From: Candidatus Lokiarchaeum ossiferum
GTDB lineage: Archaea > Asgardarchaeota > Lokiarchaeia > Sigyniarchaeales > Promethearchaeaceae
Direction: 5' to 3'
Assembly (NCBI GenBank): GCA_025839675.1
Contig: CP104013.1
Location: 2,400,001 to 2,432,000 of the forward strand
DNA: 32,000 nucleotides
Position 1 is the stretch's first letter. Each line of letters starts with the position of its first letter. The position numbers and the translations under genes are program-made. Below, one piece after another: positions 9,208 to 26,789 of this stretch. The notes under the pieces were generated by a model that had not been told where the DNA came from, made no database searches, and worked only from the letters and a program-made list of their open reading frames with translations.

Positions 9208-9326
9208 GTTTCTCAGTTTGAGGTTTCGCAATATTCGAGATATCACTACTATCCACAACGCATCCGGCCTTAACTTCAGTGTTCGGAATGGGTACTGGTG
9301 TTATTCCGGACCTATGACCGAGAAAC
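9208..9326 (-). rRNA. rrf: 5S ribosomal RNA (119 nt), not linked to 16S/23S in this window
   Basis: The minus-strand sequence GTTTCTCGGTCATAGGTCCGGAATAACACCAGTACCCATTCCGAACACTGAAGTTAAGGCCGGATGCG... carries the universal 5S loop/helix signature (CCGAAC...GAAGTTAAG). The termini pair (GTTTCTCGGT with ACTGAGAAAC, one G-U). A T-rich tract follows the 3' end. Confidence 0.85.
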
Positions 9327-10300: not shown

Positions 10301-10846
10301 ATGAAATACAATGAAATGCTTGATATTGATGAAACGGATAAAAAAATAATTTCAATATTACAGGAAGATCCCGAAACTACCCATTCTGCAATAGCTGAAA
10401 AAGTTCATAAATCACAACCCGCAGTTGGTGCTCGAATAATTAAATTACGACGCAAACACTTAATTACAGAAGCCGTCGGGGCCGAATTCAACCAACTAGA
10501 CTTAAAATTTGCTCGAATCGAATTATCTACTAAAAATGTTTCTAAAATTTGGGAACGCTTTAGAAGTTGTCCGCATGTGGTGAACTGTTTTAAAATGACA
10601 GGCGAGTTTAATTTAATGTTGGAAATTATTGCCCCCAACGTGAAAACAATTGAGCATTTTGTAGATTCATGTTTACGAAAAGATCCCCTTATACTTGATA
10701 TTAGAACAAACTTTGTAATTGATAGTTTACGGAAATATGTAGTACCCTTGTATTTTGAAATAGAAAAATATGAAGAATCCGGATGTTCTTATGAATGTGG
10801 GGGACCCATCACAAAAGCAGATTTGAAAGTACTCATGGATTCTTAA
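10301..10846 (+). CDS. Lrp/AsnC-like transcriptional regulator, paralogue of 9557..10102 with identical length (181 aa)
   Basis: DETDKKIISILQEDPETTHSAIAEKVHKSQPAVGARIIKLRRKHLI and CFKMTGEFNLMLEIIAP are colinear with the upstream paralogue. The C-terminal tail has GCSYECGG. Confidence 0.75.
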   Translation: MKYNEMLDIDETDKKIISILQEDPETTHSAIAEKVHKSQPAVGARIIKLRRKHLITEAVGAEFNQLDLKFARIELSTKNVSKIWERFRSCPHVVNCFKMTGEFNLMLEIIAPNVKTIEHFVDSCLRKDPLILDIRTNFVIDSLRKYVVPLYFEIEKYEESGCSYECGGPITKADLKVLMDS

Positions 10847-10856
10847 CCAAAAACGA

Positions 10857-11843
10857 TTAAATGTCGATTTCTTCTTCTTTTTTATATAATTCTACAGCCA
10901 ATTGTTTAAAAGCTTCATTCACTCCACGTCCTGTTTTTGCGGAACACTCCACATAAAGAAAACCATTTTGCTTAGCATATCTACGAGCTTCCTCTAGAGG
11001 AACCTTTCGCTCGAGGTCCGTTTTATTACCTATCAATAGCGTGGGAACTCTTAACCCTAGATGTTCTTCTAATTCATCAACCCACACTTGCAAATTTTTA
11101 AAAGAAATTGGATTGTTCACATCGTAACAAAGCAGAGCACCTTTAGCATCCCGATAATAAATCCCTCGAATTTTTTCATAGTGAGCTTGTCCAGCAGCAT
11201 CCCAGACATTGAGAGTCGCTTTAAAAGTCCGTGAACCATTAATGAATACATCGTCATCACTTAAATACTCACACGTAATTTCTTTAGATCCGAAATCAAC
11301 CCCTAAAGTGGTTTTTAAGTCCTTTTTAAAATAATTATCGGTGAATCTTACTTTAATGGCCGTTTTTCCAACAGCAGAATCACCAATTTCCACTATTTTA
11401 AAAGAATAATGGTTATGAAGTAAGGATTGCACTTCTTTTTTAGCCCACGGCCCGATGGTATCCCCAGAAATTAAATCTTCACGAATTTCAGTTATTTCTT
11501 CAAATTCAAGGAGAAAGCCTTTAGTATAAGTATCAACTTCCATGTATTCCAAGGCTTTTGTATTAATTGTTTTAATTTTTCCAGAACAAGGCGAATTTAG
11601 AGTAGTAATTCCTTTTTCAGTGACGATACTGGCAAACGGTTCATTTATTTTGATTTCATTTTCTACCAAAATTGTCACAATTTGTGGAGACGCTAAAAAT
11701 GCAAACCCAATTTGGTCCAAACCGATAAGTTTCTTATTTAAATCTAAATATACATGATGATTTTTAGAATAACTCAGATTTTCGGGAATATAATATCGAC
11801 CATTAGCTAGATAGACCATATACAAAATCAATATACACAACAT
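10857..11843 (-). CDS. Fusion protein: N-terminal GcvH-like (lipoyl-carrier-like) domain plus C-terminal Rab-like small GTPase
   Basis: Residues ~18-115 align colinearly by eye with glycine-cleavage H protein (IPENLSYSKNHHVYL / IGLDQIGFAFL / ASIVTEKGITTLNSPCSGKIKTIN / TYTKGFLLEFE). The lipoyl-Lys position is retained, with the same K-x7-P-x-SG spacing as E. coli GcvH. Residues ~150-328 are a canonical GTPase (GDSAVGKT, TLGVDF, WDAAGQ, NKTD, SAKTG). Confidence 0.8.
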   Translation of the reverse strand: MLCILILYMVYLANGRYYIPENLSYSKNHHVYLDLNKKLIGLDQIGFAFLASPQIVTILVENEIKINEPFASIVTEKGITTLNSPCSGKIKTINTKALEYMEVDTYTKGFLLEFEEITEIREDLISGDTIGPWAKKEVQSLLHNHYSFKIVEIGDSAVGKTAIKVRFTDNYFKKDLKTTLGVDFGSKEITCEYLSDDDVFINGSRTFKATLNVWDAAGQAHYEKIRGIYYRDAKGALLCYDVNNPISFKNLQVWVDELEEHLGLRVPTLLIGNKTDLERKVPLEEARRYAKQNGFLYVECSAKTGRGVNEAFKQLAVELYKKEEEIDI

Positions 11844-13399: not shown

Positions 13400-13636
13400 T
13401 TATTTCACACATTCGAAAAAGAGTTCCCAACCTTCATCATCATCTAAAATTTCAGTACCCAAAAATTTATGTTTAGTTTTGGCCAAATCTCGGGGAACGG
13501 ATTGACTAGCAGGTTTGTAATCGGTGATTACTTTTAAAATTTGTCCCGGTTGCATACTTCGCAATCGTTTTTTCGTCTTTAAAGCGGGGACTGGGCAAAC
13601 CAATCCACATGTGTCTAATTCTGCATCGAATTTCAT
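13400..13636 (-). CDS. tusA: TusA/SirA-family sulfur-carrier protein
   Basis: 78 aa. MKFDAELDTCGLVCPVPALKTKKRL carries the conserved CPxP persulfide-carrying Cys motif. Confidence 0.85.
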   Translation of the reverse strand: MKFDAELDTCGLVCPVPALKTKKRLRSMQPGQILKVITDYKPASQSVPRDLAKTKHKFLGTEILDDDEGWELFFECVK

Positions 13637-13669
13637 AGGTTATCACTTATTTATTTGTTTTTGAGAAAT

Positions 13670-13693
13670 AAAAAAAAACCGATTATTCATCGG
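13670..13693 (-). terminator. Short hairpin overlapping the stop codon of the FrhB::GltD gene, followed by T9
   Basis: The minus strand reads CCGAT-GAATA-ATCGG, then TTTTTTTTT. Oligo-T tracts are the main archaeal termination signal. Confidence 0.5.
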
Positions 13694-16130
13694 CTAAGGA
13701 AAAGATAGGCTCATCATCTTCAACAGCCATGACCAACTGACCTTTTTGTACTAAACGCAATGCGTTAAAGCGGACATCTTTCACTTTCATATCCAATTTC
13801 TCTCCTAAAGTACTTATTGATCCCGAGCCGTTGAGTTTTAGCCAATTATAGATTTTTTCACGGGGAGTATGAGAATGTTCAAGGATTCGACGTTTCATTT
13901 TCTTATCAATCGCCAGATCAACGGCTTCTTTGGATACAACGCCAGTCACTAATAGATCTGCTTTGAGCATTTCTTGAACAATTCTTTGAGCTCGCTTGGT
14001 CCAAATCACAACGGTTGTGAAATCTTTCTCAGAACCAATCTCACCAGCTGTAATATCAGCATGAATAGCAGCAAAATCTTGACAATGAGAACAAAATCGG
14101 TTACAATTAAAACAGCGGTTTGCTTCTTTAATTGCCATCGATTCATCAAAGATTCCATCAATTTCTTCAAAATTTCGCCAGATTGTTTGGATTTCTTCAG
14201 TAGGAGGTTTTTTCGATTTGTCCTTTGGTGGTAAAATTGGGTGGAAGAACATTTTCGATCGATTAATTCTCCCTTCTTTAAGATCTTGACCTCTCAAATA
14301 TCGATCAATCGATGTTGCAGCTTCTCTTCCATGAGCAATTGCTGCAACCGCCACATTTTTCCCACGCACAATAATATCTCCTCCGGCAAAGATTCCGGGA
14401 AGATTCGTTTCAAAGGTTATCTCATCCACTTTGATTTTACTTCGATCTTTCTCTAATTTTGACCCGCTTGCTTGGTCAATTAAATCTAGATCTCCAGTTT
14501 GTCCAATCGCGATGACAATTGCATCGACATCAAAACTATATTCTGAACCTTCAATTTTTTCAAAATTAGTGCGCCCATTTTCCCCAGGTTGTTGGGAAAC
14601 TTTATGACAATTAAATACTAAGCGACCATCGTCGGTTTGTGAGAATTTTTTAGTTGATGTATCATACTTATATTCAATAAATGGCATTTCTGCAGCAGGA
14701 ATCTCTTCACGAGCCATTTTTAATTGCTCTTCACTTCGGATTTCGACCATGATGGCCTTTTTAGCACCTAAACGAATTGCAGTTTGAGCAACATCAATGG
14801 CAACAGGACCCCCACCCAGAATTCCAACGGTTTTATCCTTGAATTCTTCGAGATTTTCCCAATAGCGATATTTTCTATCCACCAAAAATTCAACAGCAGT
14901 ATGAACATTGGGAAGATCTTCACCTTCCAATTTTAAGGTTAGAGGTTGATATTGACCTACAGCCAAGAAAATTGCTTCATAACCTTGATTTTTTAAATCT
15001 TCGAAGGTCAGGTCAGGTCCAATCGGACTGTTGAGTTTTACATCAACACCTGCTTGTTTTACGAACTCTACATCATAATCTAAGACCTCATCTGGCAAAC
15101 GGAATTTAGGAACCCCAAAGCGAAGCATTCCTCCAGTTTTATCAGATTTTTCAAAAATTGTAGGTTTATATCCCAATTGTGCTAAATAATAACTGGCTGT
15201 GAGTCCTGCTGGGCCTGAACCAATGATGGCCACTTTTTTATTGCCAGATTTTCCAGACTCAATAGGTATTTTACGCCCATGTTCCATTTCCCAATCAGTA
15301 ATATACTTCTTTAATTCCCGAATGGCAATCGGATGATTAGTTCCAATTAAAGTACAATTGTATTCACATTCATGAGTGCATACCCGTCCGCAAATTGATG
15401 GTAGAGGATTCATTTCACGAATCAAGTCAACAGCTTCTTGGAAATTGCCTTGGCGAATTTCGTTAATATATCCAGAAGCATCCACTCCAGCGGGGCAACT
15501 TCGTCGGCACGGTGAATAAATTTCGCCTTCTTCCGATTCACCTCCCCGAATATTTGCATTGCAAAATAGTCCAATTTTGAAAATTTCGGTGTTCATTTCG
15601 TCTTCAATACCTTTTGCACCTCGAATTTCGCATGGAACTCCAACAATACCAACGGGTCCATGATCAGCATCGCCCAATACTTCGACCATTTTTTCTAAAA
15701 CACCGGAGCGTCCATAGGAGACTCCAGAATATTTTCGAACATCATTTGGATCAGAGGTTATTACTGAAACAGGGCGACCATTCATACTTTGAACTTCCAC
15801 CAATTTCTTCACTTTTCCTGATTCCAAAAGATATTTATTTAAAGTAGTGACAAATCCACCACTTACGGCATTTCTATGAATATCTTCATCCGTAGATTTA
15901 AGCGCTAAAATATCTAGAGGTGTTTCCTTAGAGACTTTAGTCAAGCGTATTTGAGGACATTTACTATAGCATTTACCGCAAGCTTCCCCATCTCGTTCCA
16001 TAATACAGAAATCATCAAGAGTTGGTTTGAGATCTTCCATGATCAAATGTTTACATGATCCAGTGCACAATCCACAACCTTGACAAAGTCCTGGATTGAT
16101 AATTTCTTGTTTTAATAATCGAAAACTCAT
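13683..16130 (-). CDS. Multidomain flavo-FeS oxidoreductase: FrhB-N, inserted GltD/NfnB/SudA-like NAD(P)H-FAD module, FrhB-C, C-terminal winged-helix-like tail
   Basis: N-terminal CQGCGLCTGSC...AVSGGFVTTL...VGVPCEIRG...IGLFC (FrhB/FdhB N domain). The middle has CRRSCPAGVDASGYI...NPLPSICGRVCTHECEYNC plus VAIIGSGPAGLTASYYLAQLGY...GGMLRFGVPKFRLP (GltD/NfnB-type). Late CFNCNRFCSHCQDFAAIHADITAGEIG (FrhB C domain). The last ~70 aa resemble a wHTH. Confidence 0.8.
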   Translation of the reverse strand: MSFRLLKQEIINPGLCQGCGLCTGSCKHLIMEDLKPTLDDFCIMERDGEACGKCYSKCPQIRLTKVSKETPLDILALKSTDEDIHRNAVSGGFVTTLNKYLLESGKVKKLVEVQSMNGRPVSVITSDPNDVRKYSGVSYGRSGVLEKMVEVLGDADHGPVGIVGVPCEIRGAKGIEDEMNTEIFKIGLFCNANIRGGESEEGEIYSPCRRSCPAGVDASGYINEIRQGNFQEAVDLIREMNPLPSICGRVCTHECEYNCTLIGTNHPIAIRELKKYITDWEMEHGRKIPIESGKSGNKKVAIIGSGPAGLTASYYLAQLGYKPTIFEKSDKTGGMLRFGVPKFRLPDEVLDYDVEFVKQAGVDVKLNSPIGPDLTFEDLKNQGYEAIFLAVGQYQPLTLKLEGEDLPNVHTAVEFLVDRKYRYWENLEEFKDKTVGILGGGPVAIDVAQTAIRLGAKKAIMVEIRSEEQLKMAREEIPAAEMPFIEYKYDTSTKKFSQTDDGRLVFNCHKVSQQPGENGRTNFEKIEGSEYSFDVDAIVIAIGQTGDLDLIDQASGSKLEKDRSKIKVDEITFETNLPGIFAGGDIIVRGKNVAVAAIAHGREAATSIDRYLRGQDLKEGRINRSKMFFHPILPPKDKSKKPPTEEIQTIWRNFEEIDGIFDESMAIKEANRCFNCNRFCSHCQDFAAIHADITAGEIGSEKDFTTVVIWTKRAQRIVQEMLKADLLVTGVVSKEAVDLAIDKKMKRRILEHSHTPREKIYNWLKLNGSGSISTLGEKLDMKVKDVRFNALRLVQKGQLVMAVEDDEPIFSLADE

Positions 16131-16134
16131 TTTT

Positions 16135-17367
16135 TTAAGCCTCCATTTTAAATTCTGTAATAATTCCTTTCTGATCTAAAGAATATTGGATCTTTCCATG
16201 CTGAAAAGTTCCCGCTTGGGGTTCAAACACTTGATATTTATATGAATCAAAGTCATCTTCTCCCTTTATTGGAGTTTTAAATCCTCCAAAGAAGATATTT
16301 GAAAGATTCATATTTCCAGCAATTGATCGAATGGAATCACAAACACTTGAATAAGCGCTTCCATCTTGAGATTCAATAGCTTTGATCAAATCTTGTTCCA
16401 AAGATCGAAGTTTAATTCTGACTTCAGTAGTTTTGGGTTGGATTTCCATTTCAATTCCCTTTTCTAATGCTTCAATTGAATCAAGTGTAAGTGAAATTGC
16501 AGATTTTCCTCCACAACATCCCATAATTAAAGGTAATTCTTCAATTGGTCTTCCAAGATATATGTCCGTATTTAAATTACCCGAAGACTTTAAACGTCCA
16601 ATCGGCATTTGAGAATCGGCCAGTGTGAAACGGAAGTAATTTCCGGTGACATCAGGATTTGCTTCGGTGATATCATCATCAGCATCGGCTAACTTATCAG
16701 TTCCGCCTTTACCTGTTGCTTCGGTTGCAACTTCAATATTGCCCATCAGAGTTGCAAATAATGCCATCTGTCGCCAACCAGATCTTTCAACGGATGGCTT
16801 ACAGGCACGACAAGGGGCACCAAAATCAATACATCGTTCTTTACATTCCTTTGCAACATATCCAGCACACATAAATCCTAAATCATTGAAACATTGTTCT
16901 TCACCGTCTCCGAATTCTATTTGGCGATGGACTTCTTCTAAATAATCACAAGTTGATTTACGATTACAGGTTTCACAGAGATTTTTTACTCGAGTGGATA
17001 ACTTATTTTCTATTGTTTCTTCCAATGTATCGATCTCGCCCAAACATCCTGCGACCTCAGTTATTGAAGAATGAAGTAGTTTGAGAGGCATTACTTTAAC
17101 CCCGCGCTGATAATTCAATCCAAAAATACCTCCTGTGGTTGTGCACGATCCAAAAGCAATTACCCTATCTGAATTTGCACTAATCTTTTCAATTATGTTT
17201 TTATCATCTTCGAGAAGATACCCTGTTATAATTGCAACATTGAATTTTTCTTCTTTCCAAGTAGCGGGTTCTGGTATGCGAACGATTTCATATTTGTTGA
17301 GAAGTAAAGTCTCATCGAAGCATTTTGAACATCCTCGAAATTGAAAGATACCGAGTTTAAGGCTCAT
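16135..17367 (-). CDS. [NiFe]-hydrogenase small-subunit-like (MvhG/FrhG, Oxidored_q6-like) FeS protein with an uncharacterised C-terminal domain of about 200 aa
   Basis: FRGCSKCF, FGSCTTTGGIFG and VAGCLG resemble the proximal-cluster ligands. CFNDLGFMCAGYVAKECKERCIDFGAPCRACKPS resembles the medial/distal cluster region of group-3 small subunits. I did not recognise any family in residues ~200-410. Confidence 0.6.
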   Translation of the reverse strand: MSLKLGIFQFRGCSKCFDETLLLNKYEIVRIPEPATWKEEKFNVAIITGYLLEDDKNIIEKISANSDRVIAFGSCTTTGGIFGLNYQRGVKVMPLKLLHSSITEVAGCLGEIDTLEETIENKLSTRVKNLCETCNRKSTCDYLEEVHRQIEFGDGEEQCFNDLGFMCAGYVAKECKERCIDFGAPCRACKPSVERSGWRQMALFATLMGNIEVATEATGKGGTDKLADADDDITEANPDVTGNYFRFTLADSQMPIGRLKSSGNLNTDIYLGRPIEELPLIMGCCGGKSAISLTLDSIEALEKGIEMEIQPKTTEVRIKLRSLEQDLIKAIESQDGSAYSSVCDSIRSIAGNMNLSNIFFGGFKTPIKGEDDFDSYKYQVFEPQAGTFQHGKIQYSLDQKGIITEFKMEA

Positions 17368-17777
17368 TAGAAAGTTCCTCCAATTTCTTCTGCTTTTCCT
17401 AAGCGTTCCATTATATCTTCAAAATCTCCAGTAGCCGTGTCTCCTTCTGCGGCTCGAGCGGTGTAATGATTAATCATTTGATCACTATATCCCATTTCTT
17501 TGAAGAATTTTTTCATCAGCTTGATACGATGCATGGAGAGAAAATTGCCATTAAAAAAATGACAAGCGCCAAAACAACAACCAATCACCCCAACAGCATC
17601 TGCCCCATTGTTTAAGGCATCCATGATTTGAATAGGCCCCACTTGTCCGCTACATTTCACTCGAACAATTCGAATTGCGGGATCATAGGCAAGACGAGCC
17701 ACACCAGCAGTATTCGCAGCACCTTGGCCACATTCATCACACATGAAACATACAACATTTTTATTCTTAGTATCCAT
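17367..17777 (-). CDS. mvhD: MvhD/FlpD-type methyl-viologen-reducing hydrogenase delta subunit homologue (Hdr adaptor)
   Basis: VVCFMCDECGQGAA...RIVRVKCSGQV...GADAVGVIGCCFGACHF is the FlpD/MvhD pattern. GGAGG lies 8 nt upstream of the ATG. The start is 1 nt after the hdrA stop. Confidence 0.85.
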   Translation of the reverse strand: MDTKNKNVVCFMCDECGQGAANTAGVARLAYDPAIRIVRVKCSGQVGPIQIMDALNNGADAVGVIGCCFGACHFFNGNFLSMHRIKLMKKFFKEMGYSDQMINHYTARAAEGDTATGDFEDIMERLGKAEEIGGTF

Positions 17778-17778
17778 T

Positions 17779-19779
17779 TTAATTTCCTCCAGTTAAAGCG
17801 ATGATTTCATCATATAATTCATCTTCACGAGAATTTTTTACTTGAATAGCTCCCGTTGGGCACACTGGCTGACACATTCCGCAACCTTTACAAGCCACAT
17901 CTTTGATAACAACCTTTCCATCTTCGCGAGCAATTGCAACAGGACTACACACAGTAATACAAAGTCCGCAATTGACACATTTTGAATAATCAATGGTTGG
18001 AATAATCATTTCTTTCTCAACATAACCGCGCACGAGTGGTTGAGCTGCCAATGCAGCAGCACTTCCTGCTTGAGCTACAGTGGTAGTAATATCTTTTGGT
18101 CCTTGGATAGCTCCAGCCACAAAAATACCATCCTTCGATGACATGGTTGGATTCATTTTAATGTGCTTTTCTTTGAAGAAACCTTCCTTCGTTCGTAGTA
18201 CATGCAATTTTGAACTCAATATTCCAACACCTTTTGGAGGCACCATAGCTGCAGATAACACAACCATATCAGTAGGTATCTGCATAGGAGTTCGAGAGAG
18301 AGTATCTTCCACGAAAACTGATAACTTACCCGTTTTTGGATCTTTTGCAATTTCAGAAGGTCTTCCACGGATAAATTTCACGCCCATTTTTTGAGAATCT
18401 TTATAAAATTCTTCATAATTTAATCCAGGAGTTCGCATGTCAATGTAACAGATAATCACATCCGTATCGGGGAGCATATCTTTAATGATTTGTGCATTTT
18501 TATTGGCAAACATACAACATACCCCAGTACAATATTCAAAACCGACTTGCTCATTTCGACTGCCAACACATTGAATCATAACTACACGTTTTGGAACCTT
18601 ACCATCTGAAGGACGGAGGATTTCACTTCCAGTTAAAGATACGGGATTCATCATCCGTTCCAATTGGAGTTGAGTGATAACATCATCATACCCTTCTTGC
18701 TTGTAATGATATGGTGCGATTTCGGAAGGATCATACTCATCATAACCAGTTGCTACAACGATTGAACCAACTTTCACCTTTGTGATCTTTTTCTTCATGG
18801 AGAAATCGACAGCACCAACTGGACATATATTCACACAAGTTTGGCATTGAATACAATTTTTTTCATCACGCACGTAAGTGGAAGGAATTGCTTGTGGATA
18901 GAGTTTATATATTGCATTTCTTACAGCCATACCAGCATCCCATTCTGCAGGAACTTCAACAGGACAATTAGCAGCACATTCCCCACAAGAAGTACAATTA
19001 TCATGCACATATCGTGGATTCGTTTTAATTTTGGCAGTAAAATTTCCTAAGGATCCTTCAACTTCACCAACTAAAACACTATTTGTGTAAAGAGTTACAA
19101 GGGGATGATTCGCAACACCATTAGTAAGGGGTGAAATACTACATTGAGGACATTCATTTGTTGGAAAAGTTTTATTCAATTGAGTCATATGACCCCCAAT
19201 ACTAGATTGCCGTTCTACTAAATGAACAGGAACACCCAACTCAGCCAAATCACTAGCTGCACGCAATCCTGCAATTCCCGCACCAAGTACTAAAGCAGCT
19301 TTTGTCGTAGGAATTTGTTTGGTTTCAATACCCTCCAATTTTCGTGATCGGTTGATACCAGCTTTCATTATCTTGATAGCTTTATCGGTTGCTTTCTTCT
19401 TTTCCTTTTTATGAACCCAGCTGCAAAATTCACGAACATTGACTTGAAAATGAACATGTTTATTCAATCCTTCTTCTTCAATAGCTTTTGCAAAAGTTCG
19501 CCCATGTTGCATTTTTGAACAAGATGCTACTACCGTCCTATCGCATCCCATCTCATTCACAGCGTCCTTCACCATTTGAACTCCAGCTTTGGAGCACATA
19601 AACATATAATCTTGAGCGACTACCACATTGGGTAAATCTTTAACTTCTTCAATTACTTTTTTCACATCTACTGTGCCAGCAATATTGTGGCCGCAATGGC
19701 AAATGAAGACTCCGATCTTTGGATCTTTTTTAGTATCCATGGTTTGGGCAATATTTGAAATAGTTGTATCATCACTCAC
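17779..19779 (-). CDS. hdrA: Heterodisulfide reductase subunit A, long methanogen-type (FAD plus multiple FeS domains)
   Basis: N-terminal IGVFICHCGHNIAG Cys domain, FAD fold ALVLGAGIAGLRAASDLAELG, inserted ferredoxin CTSCGECAANCP/CIQCQTCVNICP and C-terminal ferredoxin CVNCGLCITVCS/CKGCGMCQPVCP. The GTG start overlaps the hdrB stop (GTGAGTGA). An alternative start is ATG 19740. Confidence 0.92.
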   Translation of the reverse strand: MSDDTTISNIAQTMDTKKDPKIGVFICHCGHNIAGTVDVKKVIEEVKDLPNVVVAQDYMFMCSKAGVQMVKDAVNEMGCDRTVVASCSKMQHGRTFAKAIEEEGLNKHVHFQVNVREFCSWVHKKEKKKATDKAIKIMKAGINRSRKLEGIETKQIPTTKAALVLGAGIAGLRAASDLAELGVPVHLVERQSSIGGHMTQLNKTFPTNECPQCSISPLTNGVANHPLVTLYTNSVLVGEVEGSLGNFTAKIKTNPRYVHDNCTSCGECAANCPVEVPAEWDAGMAVRNAIYKLYPQAIPSTYVRDEKNCIQCQTCVNICPVGAVDFSMKKKITKVKVGSIVVATGYDEYDPSEIAPYHYKQEGYDDVITQLQLERMMNPVSLTGSEILRPSDGKVPKRVVMIQCVGSRNEQVGFEYCTGVCCMFANKNAQIIKDMLPDTDVIICYIDMRTPGLNYEEFYKDSQKMGVKFIRGRPSEIAKDPKTGKLSVFVEDTLSRTPMQIPTDMVVLSAAMVPPKGVGILSSKLHVLRTKEGFFKEKHIKMNPTMSSKDGIFVAGAIQGPKDITTTVAQAGSAAALAAQPLVRGYVEKEMIIPTIDYSKCVNCGLCITVCSPVAIAREDGKVVIKDVACKGCGMCQPVCPTGAIQVKNSREDELYDEIIALTGGN

Positions 19780-20680
19780 TGGATTCGACCTCCACTGAAT
19801 TTAATTTGTACTCTTTCCCCATTTGTTGATATTGTAATCCAACAAATTTTTCATCCATACCCATACAATAGGCGGTGATTTGGGAGAGATGTAATACAGG
19901 ATAATCATAGTTTGTCTCATGATTTTTATTTAAATAATCTTGTCCAGTTTCAAATTGAAGATGACAGAAGGGACAAATATCTAAGATAAAATCAGGTTTG
20001 ACTTCATCAATATTCTCCATTTTGGCACCAAAGACAGTCATACTAGTTTCAGCATAGGCGGCTTTAATACCTCCACCAGCACCACAACAGGTAAGTTTAT
20101 CCCTAAAATCTAAAGATTTTAAGCCGAGAGCTTCGATGAAATCTTCCAAAATAACAGGATTTTCAGGATCATCGATTTCTCGCACCTCTGGAGGTTTAAG
20201 AAAATGACACCCATAATGAATGGCAACATTTCCATGAATTTTCCGAACTAAATAATCCTCAATTTCATAAGGTCCAATTTCCACAGCTAAAAATTCAGCG
20301 ATATGGCGTACATTAATCGTGCCTTGGAATTCATAATCCCCGAGTAGCTTTAATTTTTCATTCACTTCTGCCCGTGCGGCTTCATCCTTTTTTAAATGTT
20401 TATTAATATCAATTAAAGTGCCAAAACATCCATTACAGACAGTAATTAGGTCTACTCCTTGTTTTTCTGCAATACAGATGTTGCGAGCTCCTGCCACCAT
20501 CCAATCAAATTTATTGAAAGAACGTAAAACGCCTGGTGCAGGACAACAAGCAGCACGTTCCATTTCAGCAATACGATATCCCATTTTTTCGAGTAAGAAT
20601 CTCGTAGCCTTTTCAATTTGAGGATAACGATGGGGTGCTAAACATCCTAAATATAGCGCAAATGCTTTTTGTTCTGCCAT
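19772..20680 (-). CDS. hdrB: Heterodisulfide reductase subunit B (two CCG domains)
   Basis: AACCPAPG...VCNGCFG and LTCCGAGGG...ICPFCHLQF correspond to the duplicated CCG motifs that bind the non-cubane FeS clusters. Confidence 0.92.
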   Translation of the reverse strand: MAEQKAFALYLGCLAPHRYPQIEKATRFLLEKMGYRIAEMERAACCPAPGVLRSFNKFDWMVAGARNICIAEKQGVDLITVCNGCFGTLIDINKHLKKDEAARAEVNEKLKLLGDYEFQGTINVRHIAEFLAVEIGPYEIEDYLVRKIHGNVAIHYGCHFLKPPEVREIDDPENPVILEDFIEALGLKSLDFRDKLTCCGAGGGIKAAYAETSMTVFGAKMENIDEVKPDFILDICPFCHLQFETGQDYLNKNHETNYDYPVLHLSQITAYCMGMDEKFVGLQYQQMGKEYKLNSVEVESSE

Positions 20681-20681
20681 T

Positions 20682-21248
20682 CTATTTTACCTCTGTTAAT
20701 TTCTTTGCTTTTTTTTCATCTACGGGAACTAAATTAAATAAATTATCCGCATATTTCTTGAGTTCACTGTCTTCTTCGTTTTTATATTTAAATAGGGTAG
20801 GAGGAAGTTCATCTAATCCTAACTCAATCCGTTGAGCACGTATTTGATCATTAATTGGGACTGCATGTCCGGTTCCTTTTAAATAACCTACCACGGCCCG
20901 ATGAACGGGATGCAAGTTTCCAGCTTTCGCTGCATAATTTCGTAATTCCATAATCACATCGGTGGGACGCACATCTCGAGGACATCGTATATAACACTGA
21001 TAACATGTGGTACATAACCAGATATCTGGATCTTCGAGGACTGTAAGATCACCAAAGGCGGCTTTTCTAACGATTTCTCGAGTTTTCATTGCGGTCCATC
21101 GTCCACTTTCGCAGCTAGACGAACAAGTCCCACATTGAATACATGAAAAGATATTTGCTTTTCGAGCAATATCCTCAAATCGTTTGGGATCAAATTCGTC
21201 ATAGTTGACCAATTTTGTTTTCTTTGCGAGTTCTTTACTGAATACCAT
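20682..21248 (-). CDS. hdrC: Heterodisulfide reductase subunit C (2x[4Fe-4S] ferredoxin-like)
   Basis: CIQCGTCSSSCESG and CTTCYQCYIRCPRDV. The track start is TTG 21269. ATG 21248 (MVFSKELAKK) sits about 26 nt downstream of a TATA-like box, consistent with a leaderless transcript. Confidence 0.9.
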   Translation of the reverse strand: MVFSKELAKKTKLVNYDEFDPKRFEDIARKANIFSCIQCGTCSSSCESGRWTAMKTREIVRKAAFGDLTVLEDPDIWLCTTCYQCYIRCPRDVRPTDVIMELRNYAAKAGNLHPVHRAVVGYLKGTGHAVPINDQIRAQRIELGLDELPPTLFKYKNEEDSELKKYADNLFNLVPVDEKKAKKLTEVK

Positions 21249-21269
21249 TAAAACACCATTATTTTTCAA

Positions 21270-21279
21270 TTTATTAAAG
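21270..21279 (-). promoter_or_regulatory. Candidate TATA box of the hdrCBA-mvhD operon
   Basis: The minus strand reads CTTTAATAAA, 22-31 nt upstream of ATG 21248. Confidence 0.4.
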
Positions 21280-21298
21280 GAATGTATTATTATTTTGT

Positions 21299-21320
21299 TT
21301 GATTTGTTGTTGATTTGTTG
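21299..21320 (+). repeat. Perfect tandem duplication of the 11-mer TTGATTTGTTG just upstream of the hdrC promoter
   Basis: TTGATTTGTTG occurs twice in tandem at 21299..21309 and 21310..21320. The second copy extends to TTGATTTGTTGAAA, an identical 14-mer to 10181..10194. Confidence 0.7.
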
Positions 21321-21331
21321 AAAGCAAAAAA

Positions 21332-21862
21332 CTAGTGAGGTGTCGGGATCGAAACCCGCATGTCTTCTTTAACTTTCTGGAGTACAACTTGGGTGGTTAT
21401 CTCTTCAATCCCCTCAATTTTCTTCACTTTTTCGAGCAGATCGATTTGATTTTCTTTCTCGACACACTTGGCCATGCAAAAAATCGGTTGGTTACCCGAC
21501 ACTTGATAAATCGCATTGATTGCATCGATTGTTTGCAATTGACAGAGTGTATCTTTAATGCTCACGGAAGAGTTCACTTTGATAAAAAGTAAGAGCATTT
21601 CCCGATATCCAATTTTGCAACAATCCAATACAGCAATATAATCTTTGATAACGCCTTGATTCGTTAGGCGTTCAATATGATTTTTTATAGCGGAAATACT
21701 CGATTTAATCCCATATTTTTGTTCCAAGTGTTTCTCGATTTTCCGAAGAGAAGCTTTTCCATCTTCTTGTAAATAGGATAAAATCTTTCGATCTAATTCA
21801 TCTAAATCAATTTTTTCATGGGAAATTGCTTTTCCCGATTGAGCCGAAGTCTTTGACATCAT
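21332..21862 (-). CDS. Lrp/AsnC-family transcriptional regulator
   Basis: LDELDRKILSYLQEDGKASLRKIEKHL... HTH followed by a RAM-like domain (LLLFIKVNSS...YQVSGNQPIFCMAKC). Confidence 0.8.
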   Translation of the reverse strand: MMSKTSAQSGKAISHEKIDLDELDRKILSYLQEDGKASLRKIEKHLEQKYGIKSSISAIKNHIERLTNQGVIKDYIAVLDCCKIGYREMLLLFIKVNSSVSIKDTLCQLQTIDAINAIYQVSGNQPIFCMAKCVEKENQIDLLEKVKKIEGIEEITTQVVLQKVKEDMRVSIPTPH

Positions 21863-21884
21863 AGCACCTTTTTATGCGGTTATT

Positions 21885-21925
21885 AAAAAAAGAAGTGAAA
21901 ATAGATCGCACGAGCCTATTTCACT
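21885..21925 (-). terminator. Intrinsic-terminator-like hairpin plus U-tract between the DsrE3-like gene and lrp
   Basis: The minus strand reads AGTGAAATAG-gctcgtgcgat-CTATTTTCACT (10 bp stem, one bulge), followed by TCTTTTTTT. Confidence 0.5.
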
Positions 21926-21942
21926 GATAACAAGATTTATTC

Positions 21943-22368
21943 TTACAAGCTGATGATACCATCTGCACCGTCGCACATTTCCATAAAGGCTGCGGCACCG
22001 ACTGCAGGTTCAACAAAATCGAAAAGTTGTTCTTTCTTGATTGGGGGTATCATAAGATCCATAGTCATTGAACATGGGTAGAGTTTAATTTTTCCATCTT
22101 CAACCCCGTCTTTGACCATGTCCCACATATCATCATATCCAAAAGATTTCAATTTCTTTTTGAACATAGCTGCCGCCATTGATTTCATTGGAAAGGGCAT
22201 TCCAGCTACTTTTGGATTGAAACTTTTCTTTAACAAATGAAGACCCCAAAAGGTAAAGAAAAAGTTCATTTCTGTTTCCATTGCTGCTCCTGTTGTACCG
22301 AGGATAACCATCATTCCGAATTTTTCAAAAGAATTTTCGGAGACAATAAAATTTAATTTTTTAGGCAT
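21943..22368 (-). CDS. DsrE-superfamily protein of the COG2210 / DsrE2-DsrE3-like type
   Basis: KLNFIVSENSFEKFGMMVILGTTGAAMETEMNFFFTFWGLHLLKK and KLYPCSMTMDLM match the FFTFWGL...C-x-M-S/T-MD pattern of this family, including the conserved Cys. Confidence 0.75.
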   Translation of the reverse strand: MPKKLNFIVSENSFEKFGMMVILGTTGAAMETEMNFFFTFWGLHLLKKSFNPKVAGMPFPMKSMAAAMFKKKLKSFGYDDMWDMVKDGVEDGKIKLYPCSMTMDLMIPPIKKEQLFDFVEPAVGAAAFMEMCDGADGIISL

Positions 22369-22459
22369 TTTTTTTACTCAACCACGTTTTTTTTTTTTTG
22401 GATTGGAATCGAGTCCTTTATCCGGTAATGCATTTTATTATATTTAAAAAAAATATTGA

Positions 22460-22804
22460 TTATAACCAAGAGATAACTCGTTCGGCTGCATCGATTTTAT
22501 CGATCAATTCGGAATAAGTAATACTTTGAATACTAGCAATAACATTTTCAGAAATACCACCACGAGCTTCAACATCTTCCAACAAGTAAAATATCGGAAT
22601 GTTTTGTTGAATTAAACTATGATAAGGAGCATTTTCTTTGGTCATTTCGGCCCCCGTTGGTTTCATTAATCCATTTACACCATCTTCCATCAGAATTACT
22701 GCACACTCTTCTAAACCAATAACAAATTCAGCAAGATTTAGAGTAGGGCCTGATTCGAAACCACTTTGTCCATATAATATTAGATTTTTAACCATTTTCG
22801 ACAC
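22460..22804 (-). CDS. dsrH: DsrH/TusB-like subunit
   Basis: About 110 aa, last in the E-F-H order. MEDGVNGL and FYLLEDVEARG resemble the DsrH signature (eDGV...L..D..ARG). The start is GTG 22804 or ATG 22795. Confidence 0.65.
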   Translation of the reverse strand: MSKMVKNLILYGQSGFESGPTLNLAEFVIGLEECAVILMEDGVNGLMKPTGAEMTKENAPYHSLIQQNIPIFYLLEDVEARGGISENVIASIQSITYSELIDKIDAAERVISWL

Positions 22805-22807
22805 ATC

Positions 22808-23179
22808 CTATATATGAAAAACCGAGGCAAATTCCATCATAATTTTTGAAATTTCGCTCCGGCTGATTACTTGAATTGGAATTTCTTCAAATTCAAATAA
22901 CTCTTCTTTATTCATTCCTCGACGATTCATGTCTTCTTGGGTTACAATGATAGGTAATTCACTCAAATCAGCCATTTCCAACCCTTCTTCCATCGAATCC
23001 ATACCAATTTTTTCAACCATAAGATTATTTTTGACAGTTAACACAGCATCTCCATAAAGAAGAACCTTGCAATCAATATCTTCTCCTAATCCTAGATATC
23101 CTGCACCTAATCGAATTGCTTCATAAGCAGAATTGCTTCCAAAAGGACTTTTATTACATAATATCAAAACTGAATCCAT
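22808..23179 (-). CDS. dsrF: DsrF/TusC-like subunit
   Basis: VLILCNKSPFGSNSAYEAIRLGAG...KVLLYGDAVL is typical of DsrE/F-fold proteins. It holds the middle position of the trio. A GAGGTG Shine-Dalgarno element is present upstream. Confidence 0.7.
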   Translation of the reverse strand: MDSVLILCNKSPFGSNSAYEAIRLGAGYLGLGEDIDCKVLLYGDAVLTVKNNLMVEKIGMDSMEEGLEMADLSELPIIVTQEDMNRRGMNKEELFEFEEIPIQVISRSEISKIMMEFASVFHI

Positions 23180-23191
23180 TCCATTGCACCT

Positions 23192-23548
23192 CTATGCATG
23201 AGCTCCGAATGTAATGAGCTTATCTGCTTCTTTAGTCATATTTGACAGTTCCCCCAATCCAGCAATTTCTGCACCATCGATGATATTATCTGGATATACA
23301 GCATAATTATCCGCCCATGTTTGACAAGCCCACATCGGAACATCTTTTAAGGCTTCCAATGCTAAAGGAATGTTGCGTGTCGTTTTTCCAAGGATAATAT
23401 TTTTTTGAATGTTCAAAACACCAGTGCCGAAAAAGAAAATTCCAACTACAGTATGACCTTTTGCTTTAGCAGTCTCGATTAGCTTCAGCAAAGTATAGAT
23501 TTGTTCATACTTTAGGAATTCAGTCATCACGGTAAATCCGATTTTCAT
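23192..23548 (-). CDS. dsrE: DsrE/TusD-like subunit
   Basis: Colinear with DsrE: KGHTVVGIFFFGTGV, WACQTWA (Cys at the position of the DsrE active-site Cys) and IAGLGELSNMTKEADKLITFG. Confidence 0.75.
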   Translation of the reverse strand: MKIGFTVMTEFLKYEQIYTLLKLIETAKAKGHTVVGIFFFGTGVLNIQKNIILGKTTRNIPLALEALKDVPMWACQTWADNYAVYPDNIIDGAEIAGLGELSNMTKEADKLITFGAHA

Positions 23549-23582
23549 TTTTTTTTCCCTTCGAGTAGAATAGTAAAAAAAA

Positions 23583-23810
23583 TTAGTCTTTCTTTATCAG
23601 AAAAGTAAATACACCGTTATCTTCTTTGATATCCCCAACTAAACTACAACCCGTCTTGTTCAATAATGGTGGGACATCAGCCTTGGCTCCGCCATCATCG
23701 GCGATTAACTCAAACGTTTGTCCGGGTTCCATTTTCTTGATTACTTTTTTCGCTTTCAAGATTGGCATTGGACATTTTAACCCTTTTGCATCTAATGTAA
23801 AATCTGCCAT
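23583..23810 (-). CDS. tusA: TusA/SirA-family sulfur-carrier protein (second copy)
   Basis: MADFTLDAKGLKCPMPILKAKKVIKKM has the CPxP motif. ATG 23810 is chosen because it parallels the start of the other TusA (MKFDAELDTCGLVCPVP). The track ORF extends to 23873 with a 21-aa extension that is not TusA-like. Confidence 0.85.
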   Translation of the reverse strand: MADFTLDAKGLKCPMPILKAKKVIKKMEPGQTFELIADDGGAKADVPPLLNKTGCSLVGDIKEDNGVFTFLIKKD

Positions 23811-23898
23811 ATTTTTCACTTTTTTTTTTTTACCGAAAGTTTGATTTGCCCATGCGAAAAAAGACAAAACCATTTTTCGATCAGATAATATGAAACAC

Positions 23899-25594: not shown

Positions 25595-26146
25595 ATGAAT
25601 ATTTTACTACTAAATGGAAGTGCTTCGACTACTCAAACGGAGTTTGATCTATTTCTTCAGAGCTTTGAAGGGAAACTTGAAGAACTTGGACATCAAATTT
25701 CGCTTTTGACAATCAAAGACATGCAAATCAATTTTTGTATAGGATGTTTCGGATGTTGGGTGAAGCATCCAGGGAAATGTGTATTTAACGATGAACAGGA
25801 AAAAATATACCGAGCTGTCCTCAAGTCAGATCTTGTTATATTAGGGTCACCCTTAATAATGGGATTTATCAATTCCAATATTAAAAAGGTATGTGATCGC
25901 TTAATTCCATTATTAAGGCCGTATGTTGAGGTATTTAAAGGAGAAATTCGACATGTCCGAAGATATAAAAAATTTCCCAAGTTTGCACTCTTAGTTGAGA
26001 AGGAACTTGATACTGATGAAGAGGATTTAATACTATTGAAAGAAATTTTTGAGAGAACAACCCGAAATTTTCATACTCAATTGATTTATTTAAAAACAAC
26101 ACAAAATTCGATGGAGGAGATTGTTTATGCAACTATTGGCCATTAA
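25595..26146 (+). CDS. Flavodoxin-fold NAD(P)H-dependent FMN reductase / iron-sulfur-flavoprotein-like protein
   Basis: MNILLLNGSAS..., CIGCFGCWVKHPGKCVFND and SDLVILGSPLIMGFINSNIKKVCDRL fit the FMN_red/Isf-like pattern. Confidence 0.7.
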   Translation: MNILLLNGSASTTQTEFDLFLQSFEGKLEELGHQISLLTIKDMQINFCIGCFGCWVKHPGKCVFNDEQEKIYRAVLKSDLVILGSPLIMGFINSNIKKVCDRLIPLLRPYVEVFKGEIRHVRRYKKFPKFALLVEKELDTDEEDLILLKEIFERTTRNFHTQLIYLKTTQNSMEEIVYATIGH

Positions 26147-26789
26147 TGGATCACCAAGAGGGAAAAAATCCAACTCCCGTATAATATTGAAATCAATTAC
26201 AAGTGGAGCAGAGAGTGTAGAAAATTGGAGGACGGACACGATTTATTTAAATCAAGTGAGTTCCTATGAAGAGAGAATAGCTTCGATTACAATAGCTGAT
26301 GTGATTTTACTGATTTTTCCCCTTTATACAGATTCAATGCCAGGTATTGTGATGAAATTTATCGAAGTATTACAAAATAATCGTGAATGTATTGCACAAA
26401 AAAAAATTGGATTCATTATTCAATCAGGATTTCCTGAAAGGCACCACAGTGTCTTCATTCAGAAATATTTCATAAAACTGGCCCAGAAGTTAGATTGTTG
26501 TTATATAGGATCTGCTATTCTAGGAGGCATCGAAGGCATTCAGAACAGTTCTAAGGAAGAATTCGAAGAATATGATATTTTATTCACAGAAATAGGTAGA
26601 ATGATCGTATCTGAAGGGAAAATTGAAGAAGAAATGTTTGATTCTATCAAAGGACCATATAAATTTCCACGATGGGTCGCATTTCTTTTCAAATACATCA
26701 TGAAACTGAAAAAAGGACAATCTTTTTGGGATAATCAGCTGAAAACGAATAATGCCTATGAGCAACGATTTGAGCGCCCTTATGAATAA
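26127..26789 (+). CDS. Flavodoxin-fold NAD(P)H-dependent oxidoreductase, second tandem copy
   Basis: LLAINGSPRGKKSNSRIIL... and ADVILLIFPLYTDSMPGIVMKFIE. ATG 26127 has GGAGG about 10 nt upstream and overlaps the previous gene by 20 nt. Confidence 0.65.
   Translation: MQLLAINGSPRGKKSNSRIILKSITSGAESVENWRTDTIYLNQVSSYEERIASITIADVILLIFPLYTDSMPGIVMKFIEVLQNNRECIAQKKIGFIIQSGFPERHHSVFIQKYFIKLAQKLDCCYIGSAILGGIEGIQNSSKEEFEEYDILFTEIGRMIVSEGKIEEEMFDSIKGPYKFPRWVAFLFKYIMKLKKGQSFWDNQLKTNNAYEQRFERPYE

Follow-up and report, generated by a model that had tools for sequence, protein, structure and literature searches.

A run of thirteen genes in the genome of Candidatus Lokiarchaeum ossiferum joins a heterodisulfide reductase (Hdr) operon of methanogen type to a set of predicted sulfur-carrier proteins. 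It occupies positions 13400-23873 of the stretch analysed here, 32,000 nucleotides of contig CP104013.1 (assembly GCA_025839675.1, positions 2,400,001 to 2,432,000), which is called the window below, supplies all position numbers and has a guanine plus cytosine (G+C) content of about 35%. A preliminary description, drawn from the DNA letters alone, had read this region as thirteen consecutive minus-strand genes, and Pfam searches and the listing of open reading frames (ORFs) agree with it, coordinates included. As argued in the following, the cluster may be one functional unit, in which an Hdr complex with the input module of a retired hydrogenase acts on the sulfur of its own carriers; we give this interpretation about an even chance of being right. 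Read along the minus strand, the features are:

23583-23873, minus strand: tusA1, canonical TusA-type sulfur carrier of 96 amino acids (aa), which opens the relay (Pfam TusA, E value 1.5e-23)
23192-23548, minus strand: DsrE/TusD-like subunit, 118 aa (Pfam DsrE, E 2e-15)
22808-23179, minus strand: DsrF/TusC-like subunit, 123 aa (Pfam DsrE, E 1.3e-11)
22460-22804, minus strand: DsrH/TusB-like subunit, 114 aa (Pfam DsrH, E 5.4e-8)
21943-22368, minus strand: DsrE2B-like carrier, 141 aa (Pfam DrsE_2, E 3.6e-18)
21885-21925, minus strand: candidate terminator, hairpin and U-run UCUUUUUUU, in the gap between the DsrE2B-like gene and lrp (RNAfold -12.3 kcal/mol for the intergenic region)
21332-21862, minus strand: lrp, regulator of the Lrp/AsnC family (Pfam HTH_24, HTH_AsnC-type, AsnC_trans_reg)
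20682-21269, minus strand: hdrC as the listed ORF, two [4Fe-4S] motifs (Fer4 dicluster; TIGR03290)
19772-20680, minus strand: hdrB, two CCG domains (Pfam CCG twice; TIGR03288)
17779-19779, minus strand: hdrA, long methanogen-type form, 666 aa (5odc_A match)
17367-17777, minus strand: mvhD (FlpD), the HdrA adaptor (Pfam FlpD, E 8.4e-32)
16135-17367, minus strand: small-subunit-like protein, here MvhG', 410 aa, NEF87_002001 (Pfam Oxidored_q6)
16597-17367, minus strand: MvhG-like part of MvhG', aa 1-257 (MvhG profile match, Foldseek)
16138-16596, minus strand: C-terminal extension of MvhG', aa 258-410 (profile comparison with FrhA)
16399-16569, minus strand: putative degenerate L1 region in this extension, residues 267-323 (hhalign against FrhA)
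13683-16130, minus strand: frhB::gltD, 815 aa (Pfam FrhB_N, Fer4_20, Pyr_redox_2 and FrhB_C)
14169-15545, minus strand: predicted GltD/NfnB-type insertion in FrhB::GltD, about aa 196-654 (Pfam coordinates, PDB matches)
13665-13695, minus strand: candidate terminator, 7-base-pair hairpin and T9 overlapping the frhB::gltD stop codon (terminator scan; RNAfold -8.1 kcal/mol)
13400-13636, minus strand: tusA2, a second TusA, 78 aa (Pfam TusA, E 1.1e-20)

The genes from hdrC to frhB::gltD follow each other as tightly as first reported, with measured gaps of +1, -8, +1, -1 and +4 nucleotides. GGAGG or GAGGT elements, which had been placed before every start of this series, are found 8-9 nucleotides 5' of hdrB, hdrA, mvhD, the MvhG' gene and frhB::gltD, but not of hdrC. 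Here, the listed TTG at 21269 has no ribosome-binding site, and an ATG 21 nucleotides downstream at 21248 is preceded by GGAG at a distance of 5 nucleotides. This ATG is probably the true start and would give a protein of 188 aa, the length of the orthologues. Both sites of hairpin and T-run are present, one after the DsrE2B-like gene and the other after frhB::gltD. The TATA element assigned 5' of hdrC is AT-rich sequence and nothing more specific, and a scan of the window for sigma-70 promoters returned fewer sites than shuffled controls, the bacterial consensus being irrelevant for an archaeon.

For comparison, one genome per species was scanned with an alignment of MvhG', which gave 61 related loci, all from Asgard archaea (record labels Promethearchaeota, Hermod-, Hod- and Odinarchaeota, Sigynarchaeum, Harpocratesius and MK-D1). 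These loci were annotated with the window proteins, and the linkage counts given below take only loci with enough sequence.

The centre of the cluster is a methanogen-type core, as had been proposed: structure matches, motifs and the gene listing agree on the long HdrA of 666 residues, a single HdrB, a single HdrC and MvhD. The alignment of HdrA with the methanogen subunit 5odc_A covers the full length (residues 18-659 on 2-646, E 2.5e-190), and the protein comprises the N-terminal cysteine domain, the flavin adenine dinucleotide (FAD) domain and the inserted and C-terminal ferredoxin domains, with four CxxCxxCxxxC motifs, the N-terminal cysteine group and GxGxxG at residue 166. HdrB shares 44% of 283 aligned residues with 5odc_B and carries both complete CX31-39CCX35-36CXXC motifs (Cys13/45/46/82/85 and Cys158/198/199/236/239); with the NCBIfam model TIGR03288 it scores 348.3 bits, the cut-off being 345.15. 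HdrC, with Cys43/46/49/53 and Cys86/89/92/96, reaches 170.4 bits with TIGR03290 (cut-off 160), and the six cysteines of MvhD are invariant in 61/61 orthologues. The CCG domains of HdrB are the predicted sites for non-cubane [4Fe-4S] clusters and for chemistry on S-S bonds. Judging from the full-length likeness to the bifurcating methanogen enzyme and the complete CCG motifs, the Hdr looks catalytically intact.

With a core of this kind, Hdr might instead reduce a soluble disulfide or polysulfide, for example that of an unknown thiol pair, inorganic polysulfide or a compound resembling CoM-S-S-CoB, the heterodisulfide of coenzyme M (CoM) and coenzyme B (CoB), while the carriers would be co-regulated proteins that handle the product or sulfur for assimilation. 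The identity of HdrB to the methanogen subunit favours such a substrate, as does the fact that HdrB and HdrC both exceed the NCBIfam cut-offs for CoB-CoM heterodisulfide reductase. A 2025 preprint on Nerearchaeum points the same way in framing its system as reductive sulfur assimilation. However, no cofactor-making gene was found in or beside the cluster, either in the window or in the related loci, and a family search of the other window ORFs bore out the earlier statement that CoM, CoB and Mcr families are absent there. None of the remaining genes of the window is related to methanogenesis; they encode, among others, Ras-family GTPases, RsmB, a proteasome subunit and a PAS histidine kinase. 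Further arguments come from the carriers and are taken up below.

Next to MvhD lies MvhG', currently annotated as a hydrogenase subunit or as an NADH:ubiquinone oxidoreductase/NuoB-family protein. Calling it small-subunit-like was correct but incomplete: it is a small subunit of MvhG type, which appears to have a remnant of the L1 region of a large subunit fused to its C-terminus. Residues 1-257 match MvhG over its whole length (profile match to 9sw2_E residues 8-301, E 1.7e-22), and the best Foldseek match of an AlphaFold2 model is the MvhG chain 5odi_E. This model was made from a 120-sequence alignment and has a predicted local distance difference test (pLDDT) score of 79.9; an alignment of 12 sequences gave a pLDDT of 51 and was not used. 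Thirteen cysteines of MvhG' are invariant across 120 orthologues.

For residues 258-410 Pfam returned no match. The best PDB match of a profile built from this extension is FrhA residues 44-101, the L1 nickel-binding region (E 0.044), and the second match is again an FrhA at the same place. In hhalign comparisons with N-terminal fragments of FrhA, the extension profile gave a probability of 78.5% (E 1.7e-5), the extension together with divergent family members 92.3% (E 5.5e-7, 57 columns) and the divergent members alone 90.0% (E 1.6e-6); the FrhA set consisted of five short fragments and is usable for the L1 region alone. Comparisons with Escherichia coli HyaB/HybC (4%, E 0.01) and HycE (2.7%, E 0.017) fell into the same register and were non-significant. 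The divergent members read IASR(V/I)(F/Y)G(V/S)(R/K)S where large subunits have IASRVCGICP, that is, they retain the arginine and the glycine of RxCGxC and have lost both nickel ligands. According to a HMMER scan of 1.84 billion representatives, the MvhG' family is tiny, with 17 matches at E <= 1e-30 and all full-length members between 403 and 421 aa, and nothing outside this family matches the extension. A circular permutation, by which the beta-hairpin at the C-terminus of MvhG' would represent the N-terminus of a large subunit, was rejected at hhalign probabilities of 0.2-0.3%.

Hence, with moderate-to-good confidence, MvhG' may be described as a fusion of MvhG with a degraded part of MvhA, an L1 remnant without the nickel-binding cysteines. 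Full-length homology to MvhG combined with such a remnant suggests that this module is a fossil hydrogenase. In agreement with the earlier account, no frame of the window contains a [NiFe] large-subunit motif (RxC[GS]xCxxxH, DPCxxCxx[HR]); the same holds for about 1.0 Mb of sequence from 62 related loci. An mvhA gene adjacent in relatives, which would have made the window look like a rearrangement, was not encountered either, as no [NiFe] large subunit adjoins the cluster in any of 61 related genomes. The term hydrogenase-less is thus apt for the locus but not for the organism: L. ossiferum makes abundant [NiFe] hydrogenase, encoded elsewhere in its genome (PMC11216029), and in MK-D1 the MvhA protein is DSAG12_03951 (PMC7015854, supplement).

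Electrons could enter or leave through FrhB::GltD. Residues 5-181 and 665-739 of this protein match Fsr/FrhB structures in the PDB and include an N-terminal domain for two [4Fe-4S] clusters, and residues of about 200-680 match modules of NfnA and GltD type. The latter part is a GltD/NfnB-type module of the kind that uses FAD and NAD(P)H (reduced nicotinamide adenine dinucleotide or its phosphate), with two [4Fe-4S] motifs and Rossmann motifs at residues 304 (GSGPAG) and 439 (GGGPVA). Orthologues of 380-399 aa in loci L013, L033 and L048 align to aa 1-195 and 655-812 alone, that is, to both flanks only, which marks GltD as an insertion into FrhB; as far as such alignments tell, it is present in most lineages and absent from some. 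The proposed NAD(P)H/F420-type input is therefore sound as regards its FrhB and GltD domains, but with GltD being optional, NAD(P)H cannot be the universal partner.

The three loci with GltD-less FrhB come from metagenome-assembled genomes (MAGs) labelled Hermodarchaeota, Hodarchaeota and Promethearchaeota, and they carry an extra pair of hdrC-like and hdrB-like genes after tusA2 (L013:6440-9379, L033:1955-4966, L048:11245-14180). They combine this different layout of input and Hdr genes with the same conserved core. Separately, the last ~75 residues of FrhB::GltD (aa ~742-815, 13683-13907) have no Pfam match and are kept in the GltD-less orthologues; by eye they have a small winged-helix-type look and could be a docking element.

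On the sulfur side, active-site cysteines are kept in most of the carriers. The CPxP cysteine of TusA1 (Cys34) is conserved in 38/38 orthologues and that of TusA2 (CPVP, Cys14) in 57/57; Cys75 of the DsrE-like subunit, whose best PDB match is YchN and which aligns there with the cysteine region of YchN, is found in 39/39, Cys37 of the DsrF-like subunit in 39/41 and the single Cys99 of the DsrE2B-like protein in 45/45. The DsrH-like subunit has no conserved cysteine, its Cys34 occurring in only 2/42 orthologues. TusA2 shows a median identity of 74% to its orthologues, equal to that of MvhD, while the DsrE-, DsrF- and DsrH-like subunits lie at 27-40%. Their conserved cysteines make TusA1, TusA2, the DsrE-like and the DsrE2B-like carriers look active, and a separate TusA-DsrE pair beside IscS/IscU in MK-D1 suggests that they are dedicated to this system. 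As a universal substrate, a disulfide within TusA2 (CxxxC) was considered and discarded, given that MK-D1 and six further orthologues lack the second cysteine.

One carrier had to be renamed. The gene at 21943-22368, initially taken as DsrE3-like, encodes a DsrE2B-like protein instead: among PDB structures, 2qs7 matches it best (E 3.4e-17 over residues 3-135), CX7C is absent, and the best NCBIfam model is DsrE2, of which it would be a distant member with a score of 62 against a cut-off of 210. The structure 2qs7 represents SSO1126 of S. solfataricus, a DsrE2B, whereas DsrE3A (3mc3) has two cysteines in CX7C, and what defines the DsrE2B group is that its genes are linked to Dsr or Hdr systems (PMC4175335).

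The presence of DsrEFH-like genes also raises the question whether TusABCD-type housekeeping genes, serving 2-thiolation of transfer RNA (tRNA) or insertion of sulfur into cofactors, merely happen to lie beside an Hdr operon. TusB does not have the cysteine typical of DsrH, and the DsrH-like subunit resembles it in this respect. In MK-D1, the KEGG labels of the relay genes are tRNA 2-thiouridine synthesising proteins A, C and D and TusB (PMC7015854, supplement). On the other hand, the NCBIfam equivalog models for TusD/DsrE, TusC/DsrF and TusB/DsrH give 44 bits (cut-off 89.25), 28.5 bits (94.15) and 38.7 bits (49.2) for the DsrE-, DsrF- and DsrH-like subunits, respectively, and no TusE or MnmA homologue exists in the cluster. 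Scores far below these cut-offs and the lack of both partners imply that these are not ordinary tRNA-thiolation genes, so that the objection foreseen in the preliminary description, a grouping with TusBCD, does not hold. In addition, MK-D1 possesses a separate TusA-DsrE pair that adjoins IscS/IscU (PMC7015854, supplement). Together with the conservation described next, this makes an adjacency without mechanistic meaning very improbable.

Another thought is that the carriers traffic selenium rather than sulfur. For TusA1 and TusA2, scores with the NCBIfam model of YedF, a protein of selenium metabolism, are similar to the TusA scores, and HdrA and MvhD of Asgard archaea can be selenoproteins (PMC9723677, PMC13188914). 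However, the YedF scores are all far below the cut-offs, none of the 13 genes has an in-frame stop aligned with a cysteine in any of the 61 loci, and the cluster is present in MAGs labelled Hodarchaeota, Hermodarchaeota and Sigynarchaeum, which leaves a selenium function barely credible.

The attachment of the carriers to Hdr is remarkably constant. The DsrE2B-like gene stands immediately upstream of hdrC in 40/40 loci, all five relay genes are upstream of hdrCBA in 34/34, and tusA2 directly follows frhB in 54/54. Most genomes have the DsrE2B-like gene and hdrC in the same orientation, separated by 55 nucleotides in the median, and lrp is divergent and located upstream of tusA1; in L. ossiferum, MK-D1 and Harpocratesius, lrp instead sits between the DsrE2B-like gene and hdrC. 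An MAG labelled Thorarchaeota has the identical gene order by independent gene and Pfam calls. A search of metagenomes that started from the DsrE2B-like protein gave 40 Asgard-like contigs of sufficient length, of which 30 ran on into hdrC, and most of the remainder carried a paralogous triad of lrp, tusA and a DsrE2B-like gene. On one contig of 51% G+C (L093:1-5486), the modules are swapped and still adjacent, with MvhG'-FrhB::GltD-TusA2 preceding TusA1-DsrE-DsrF-DsrH-DsrE2B-like. Because the arrangement recurs in every related locus that is long enough, the link between relay and Hdr is not a matter of chance, and chance co-occurrence, the alternative held open in the preliminary description, fails; comparative gene order thus makes a strong case for a functional link.

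This linkage bears on two of the explanations discussed above. Conservation in 34/34 and 54/54 loci, survival of the linkage through rearrangement and tight same-strand spacing in most genomes are not what housekeeping neighbours would lead one to expect. A small-molecule substrate is likewise disfavoured by five carrier genes with conserved active cysteines that stay attached across Asgard classes, even after the module swap, and by the median identity of TusA2, which equals that of MvhD and fits a protein docking onto the complex. Overall, we consider a soluble disulfide as the substrate unlikely. For the reading in which the carriers themselves deliver the sulfur, carrier-bound sulfur is the candidate substrate of the Asgard Hdr.

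Stand-alone units of a paralogous tusA and a DsrE2B-like gene, devoid of DsrEFH and hdr genes and frequently accompanied by a divergent lrp, were also seen on Asgard-like contigs (L072, L074, L075, L083, L090, L095, L104-L106, L110, L111, L116 and L118). The genes downstream of them vary and include an Old Yellow Enzyme-type flavoprotein, a GNAT acetyltransferase and a nitroreductase. On high-G+C metagenome contigs, distant DsrE2B-like relatives pair with TusA, and the queries used detected no adjoining Hdr there. In the flanks of the 61 loci, no conserved extra partner was found, for example a transporter, a rhodanese, DsrC or LbpA.

The cluster is expressed in MK-D1, where it corresponds to DSAG12_01139-01151: all genes are transcribed, at 182-348 reads per kilobase per million mapped reads (RPKM), similar to the 296-371 RPKM of the MvhA cluster DSAG12_03951-54 (PMC7015854, Supplementary Table 3). 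A second operon of hdrC, hdrB, hdrA, mvhD and a ferredoxin gene (L002:1-3084; DSAG12_01134-01138) diverges from tusA1 in this organism, so that its relay has Hdr operons on both flanks. Imachi et al. 2020 list the MK-D1 cluster under "Heterodisulfide reductase complexes" and describe a FlxABCD-HdrABC complex in MK-D1 and other Asgard archaea as an oxidoreductase "of unknown function" (PMC7015854). The preliminary description had regarded the combination as uncharacterised. This stands insofar as a literature search found no paper combining Asgard, HdrABC and TusA and no report of the 12-13-gene synteny, the fusion of MvhG with an MvhA remnant or the insertion of GltD into FrhB. However, the idea is partly anticipated by Imachi et al., by the reported interaction of Flx-Hdr with DsrC (PMC10504309) and by the Nerearchaeum preprint, in which TusA- and DsrE-bound persulfides are drawn as Hdr substrates in another Asgard archaeon. 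Outside Asgard, the selenium-responsive operon MMJJ_16800-16910 of Methanococcus maripaludis encodes HdrB/C homologues and a DsrE/DsrF-like protein (PMC11097638) and is possibly another pairing of Hdr with a carrier.

From these data, we infer a cytoplasmic complex of HdrABC, MvhD, MvhG' and FrhB::GltD, which would descend from the Mvh hydrogenase-Hdr complex. In this scheme, MvhG' would now serve as an iron-sulfur wire only, and the FrhB-like flavoprotein would be the new point of electron entry or exit, into which an NAD(P)H module has been inserted in L. ossiferum and most relatives. FrhB::GltD, MvhG' and MvhD would thus relay electrons between NAD(P)H and the flavin of HdrA. At this flavin, the electrons could be bifurcated to, or confurcated from, ferredoxin and the HdrC-HdrB branch, and the pair of non-cubane clusters in HdrB would make or break an S-S bond on carrier-held sulfur. 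The second half, a sulfur relay, would consist of TusA1, a DsrEFH-like complex, the DsrE2B-like protein and TusA2. The sulfur species could be a cysteine persulfide, a polysulfide or a thiosulfonate, the latter having been shown for DsrE3A/TusA (PMC4175335), and its presenter would most likely be TusA2, the DsrE2B-like protein or both. Conceivably, the carriers thereby take the role that CoM-S-S-CoB has in methanogens and, presumably, DsrC has for Flx-Hdr. As a hypothesis, action of HdrB on TusA- or DsrE-bound sulfur with bifurcation between NAD(P)H and ferredoxin is plausible. Precedents for Hdr-type enzymes that work with sulfur carried on proteins come from sHdr, from Flx-Hdr with DsrC and from the Nerearchaeum preprint.

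Several observations weigh against this interpretation. HdrB and HdrC pass the equivalog cut-offs mentioned above, which makes a small-molecule disulfide possible. The second cysteine of TusA2 (Cys10, CxxxC) is present in 50/57 orthologues and missing in MK-D1 and the six others, and the GltD insertion is absent in some lineages. In L. ossiferum, lrp and the terminator-like hairpin part the relay from the hdr genes, so that co-transcription is not assured. Two metagenome contigs (L065:1954-4489, which also has lrp, and L068:3-765) contain the DsrEFH-like/DsrE2B-like relay without hdr several kilobases downstream; the relay may thus be detached from hdr in some lineages or exist there as a second copy. 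Finally, with a potential of about -270 mV, the reduction of a persulfide or of S0 is ill suited as the high-potential branch of a bifurcation in which NAD(P)H (-320 mV) reduces ferredoxin. Given these textbook potentials, the reaction may be a confurcation, use an S-S species of higher potential such as a thiosulfonate, or not bifurcate at all.

The same energetics count in favour of an oxidative direction, since, by an estimate from midpoint potentials, confurcation of electrons from sulfide and ferredoxin to NAD(P)+ should be more favourable than the opposite reaction. Such a system would run like sHdr: sulfane sulfur on the carriers, stemming from sulfide or thiosulfate, would be oxidised at HdrB, and the electrons, with those of ferredoxin, would be passed to NAD(P)+, or else persulfides would be made from sulfide for biosynthesis. 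Characteristically, sHdr genes have TusA and DsrE2/E3 proteins encoded next to them (PMC6067878, PMC4175335), and the second hdrC/hdrB-like pair after tusA2 in the GltD-less variants recalls the two HdrBC pairs of that system. Yet HdrA is of the long bifurcating type, of which the sHdrA structure from a sulfur oxidiser (6tjr) covers residues 333-584 only, and the cluster has one HdrB and one HdrC. Moreover, LbpA, with which sHdr genes are "inevitably associated" (Cao et al., PMC6067878), is absent from the window and the conserved flanks, as is lipoate ligase, and the hosts are strictly anaerobic fermenters. We therefore regard an oxidative, sHdr-like operation as quite unlikely and continue with the reading of a retired-hydrogenase Hdr complex working on its own carriers.

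Taken further, this reading would amount to a protein-based "heterodisulfide" cycle in Asgard archaea, in which sulfur bound to TusA or DsrE2B is the high-potential partner of a bifurcating or confurcating Hdr, the fossil Mvh input has been rewired to NAD(P)H, and the module is ancestral and central to energy conservation. This extension is tentative and falls well short of an even chance. If it were true, the redox balance of the archaeal relatives of eukaryotes would be tied directly to sulfur chemistry. Hdr complexes occur widely among organisms without CoM and CoB synthesis, and their substrate is a long-standing open question; Hdr-linked electron bifurcation in Asgard archaea is central to models of syntrophy and of hydrogen or sulfur partnerships at the origin of eukaryotes. 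Six invariantly attached carrier genes provide concrete and expressible candidate substrates, with L. ossiferum and MK-D1 available as cultured hosts. The putative fusion of MvhG with an MvhA remnant, in turn, exemplifies how evolution can turn a hydrogenase into an electron wire and yet preserve the bifurcating core, which bears on modular enzyme evolution as well as on annotation.

Some further features of the window may be recorded. Genes for small GTPases of the Ras/Roc/Arf family are clustered at 8511-9056 and 10857-11843, as is typical for Asgard genomes; one of these GTPases has 328 aa with an N-terminal extension, and an ORF of 181 aa lies in between at 10301-10846. Between the GTPase genes there is also a lone 5S ribosomal RNA gene (9208-9325, minus strand, Rfam 67 bits), beside which a second regulator of the Lrp/AsnC family is encoded (9557-10102, plus strand). 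A protein of 381 aa (2280-3425, minus strand) combines an FHA domain with a ribonuclease domain of Zc3h12a/NYN type. Two overlapping-to-adjacent FMN_red/flavodoxin-like genes of opposite orientation (25595-26789, plus strand) lie upstream of tusA1 at a distance of about 1.7 kb; their position is not kept in the related loci.

Compared with the MvhADG-HdrABC complex of methanogens (5odc, 9sw2), the cluster encodes full-length homologues of HdrA, HdrB, HdrC and MvhD with intact cofactor motifs as well as an MvhG homologue. In contrast, a functional MvhA is replaced by a remnant of the L1 region of ~57 residues fused to MvhG, FrhB::GltD is added, six carrier genes are attached, and the window has no genes for CoM, CoB or Mcr. 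The FlxABCD-HdrABC complexes of sulfate reducers and syntrophic bacteria share HdrABC and an MvhD-like adaptor (FlxD), the absence of a hydrogenase at the locus, an input flavoprotein for pyridine nucleotides and a cysteine-bearing sulfur-carrier protein as the proposed partner. They differ in that NAD(P)H would here be handled by a GltD/NfnB-type insertion in FrhB, no FlxA-type domain being among the Pfam hits, and in that the wire appears to be a fossil MvhG-MvhA rather than FlxBC. Instead of DsrC/TusE, which has no match in the cluster or the window, TusA, DsrEFH-like and DsrE2B-like proteins are present.

A replacement of the hydrogenase input by a flavoprotein of the FrhB/FdhB family, acting through MvhD, is known from FdhAB-MvhD-HdrABC and from the HdrA clusters of anaerobic methanotrophic archaea (ANME). 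The latter, in which FrhB/FdhB occurs with an inactive molybdopterin subunit, likewise keep a catalytically dead ancestral subunit as a scaffold (PMC12054007). Here, however, GltD interrupts FrhB, the dead subunit stems from a hydrogenase and not from a molybdopterin protein, and a sulfur relay is linked. With DsrEFH/TusBCD heterohexamers, the relay has in common three successive genes of DsrE, DsrE(F) and DsrH fold and the conserved cysteine of the E subunit, but all three proteins score below the family cut-offs, the H subunit has no conserved cysteine, and no DsrC/TusE gene is present. The fifth relay protein departs from DsrE3A in having one conserved Cys99 and no CX7C, and it agrees with DsrE2B in its similarity to SSO1126 (2qs7) and its linkage to hdrC in 40/40 loci.

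With sHdr, whose clusters contain TusA/DsrE genes (PMC6067878), the cluster shares the tie between Hdr genes with CCG domains and both TusA and a DsrE2B-type protein. Unlike sHdr, HdrA has 666 rather than ~340 aa, the order hdrC1B1A-hyp-C2B2 is replaced by a single HdrB and HdrC, LbpA and lipoate ligase are missing from the window ORFs and the conserved flanks, the host is an anaerobic fermenter, and MvhD, MvhG' and FrhB are present. Hence, the system does not form a separate category; it belongs with Mvh-Hdr, Flx-Hdr and the carrier linkage of sHdr type, features of which it brings together in one conserved cluster.

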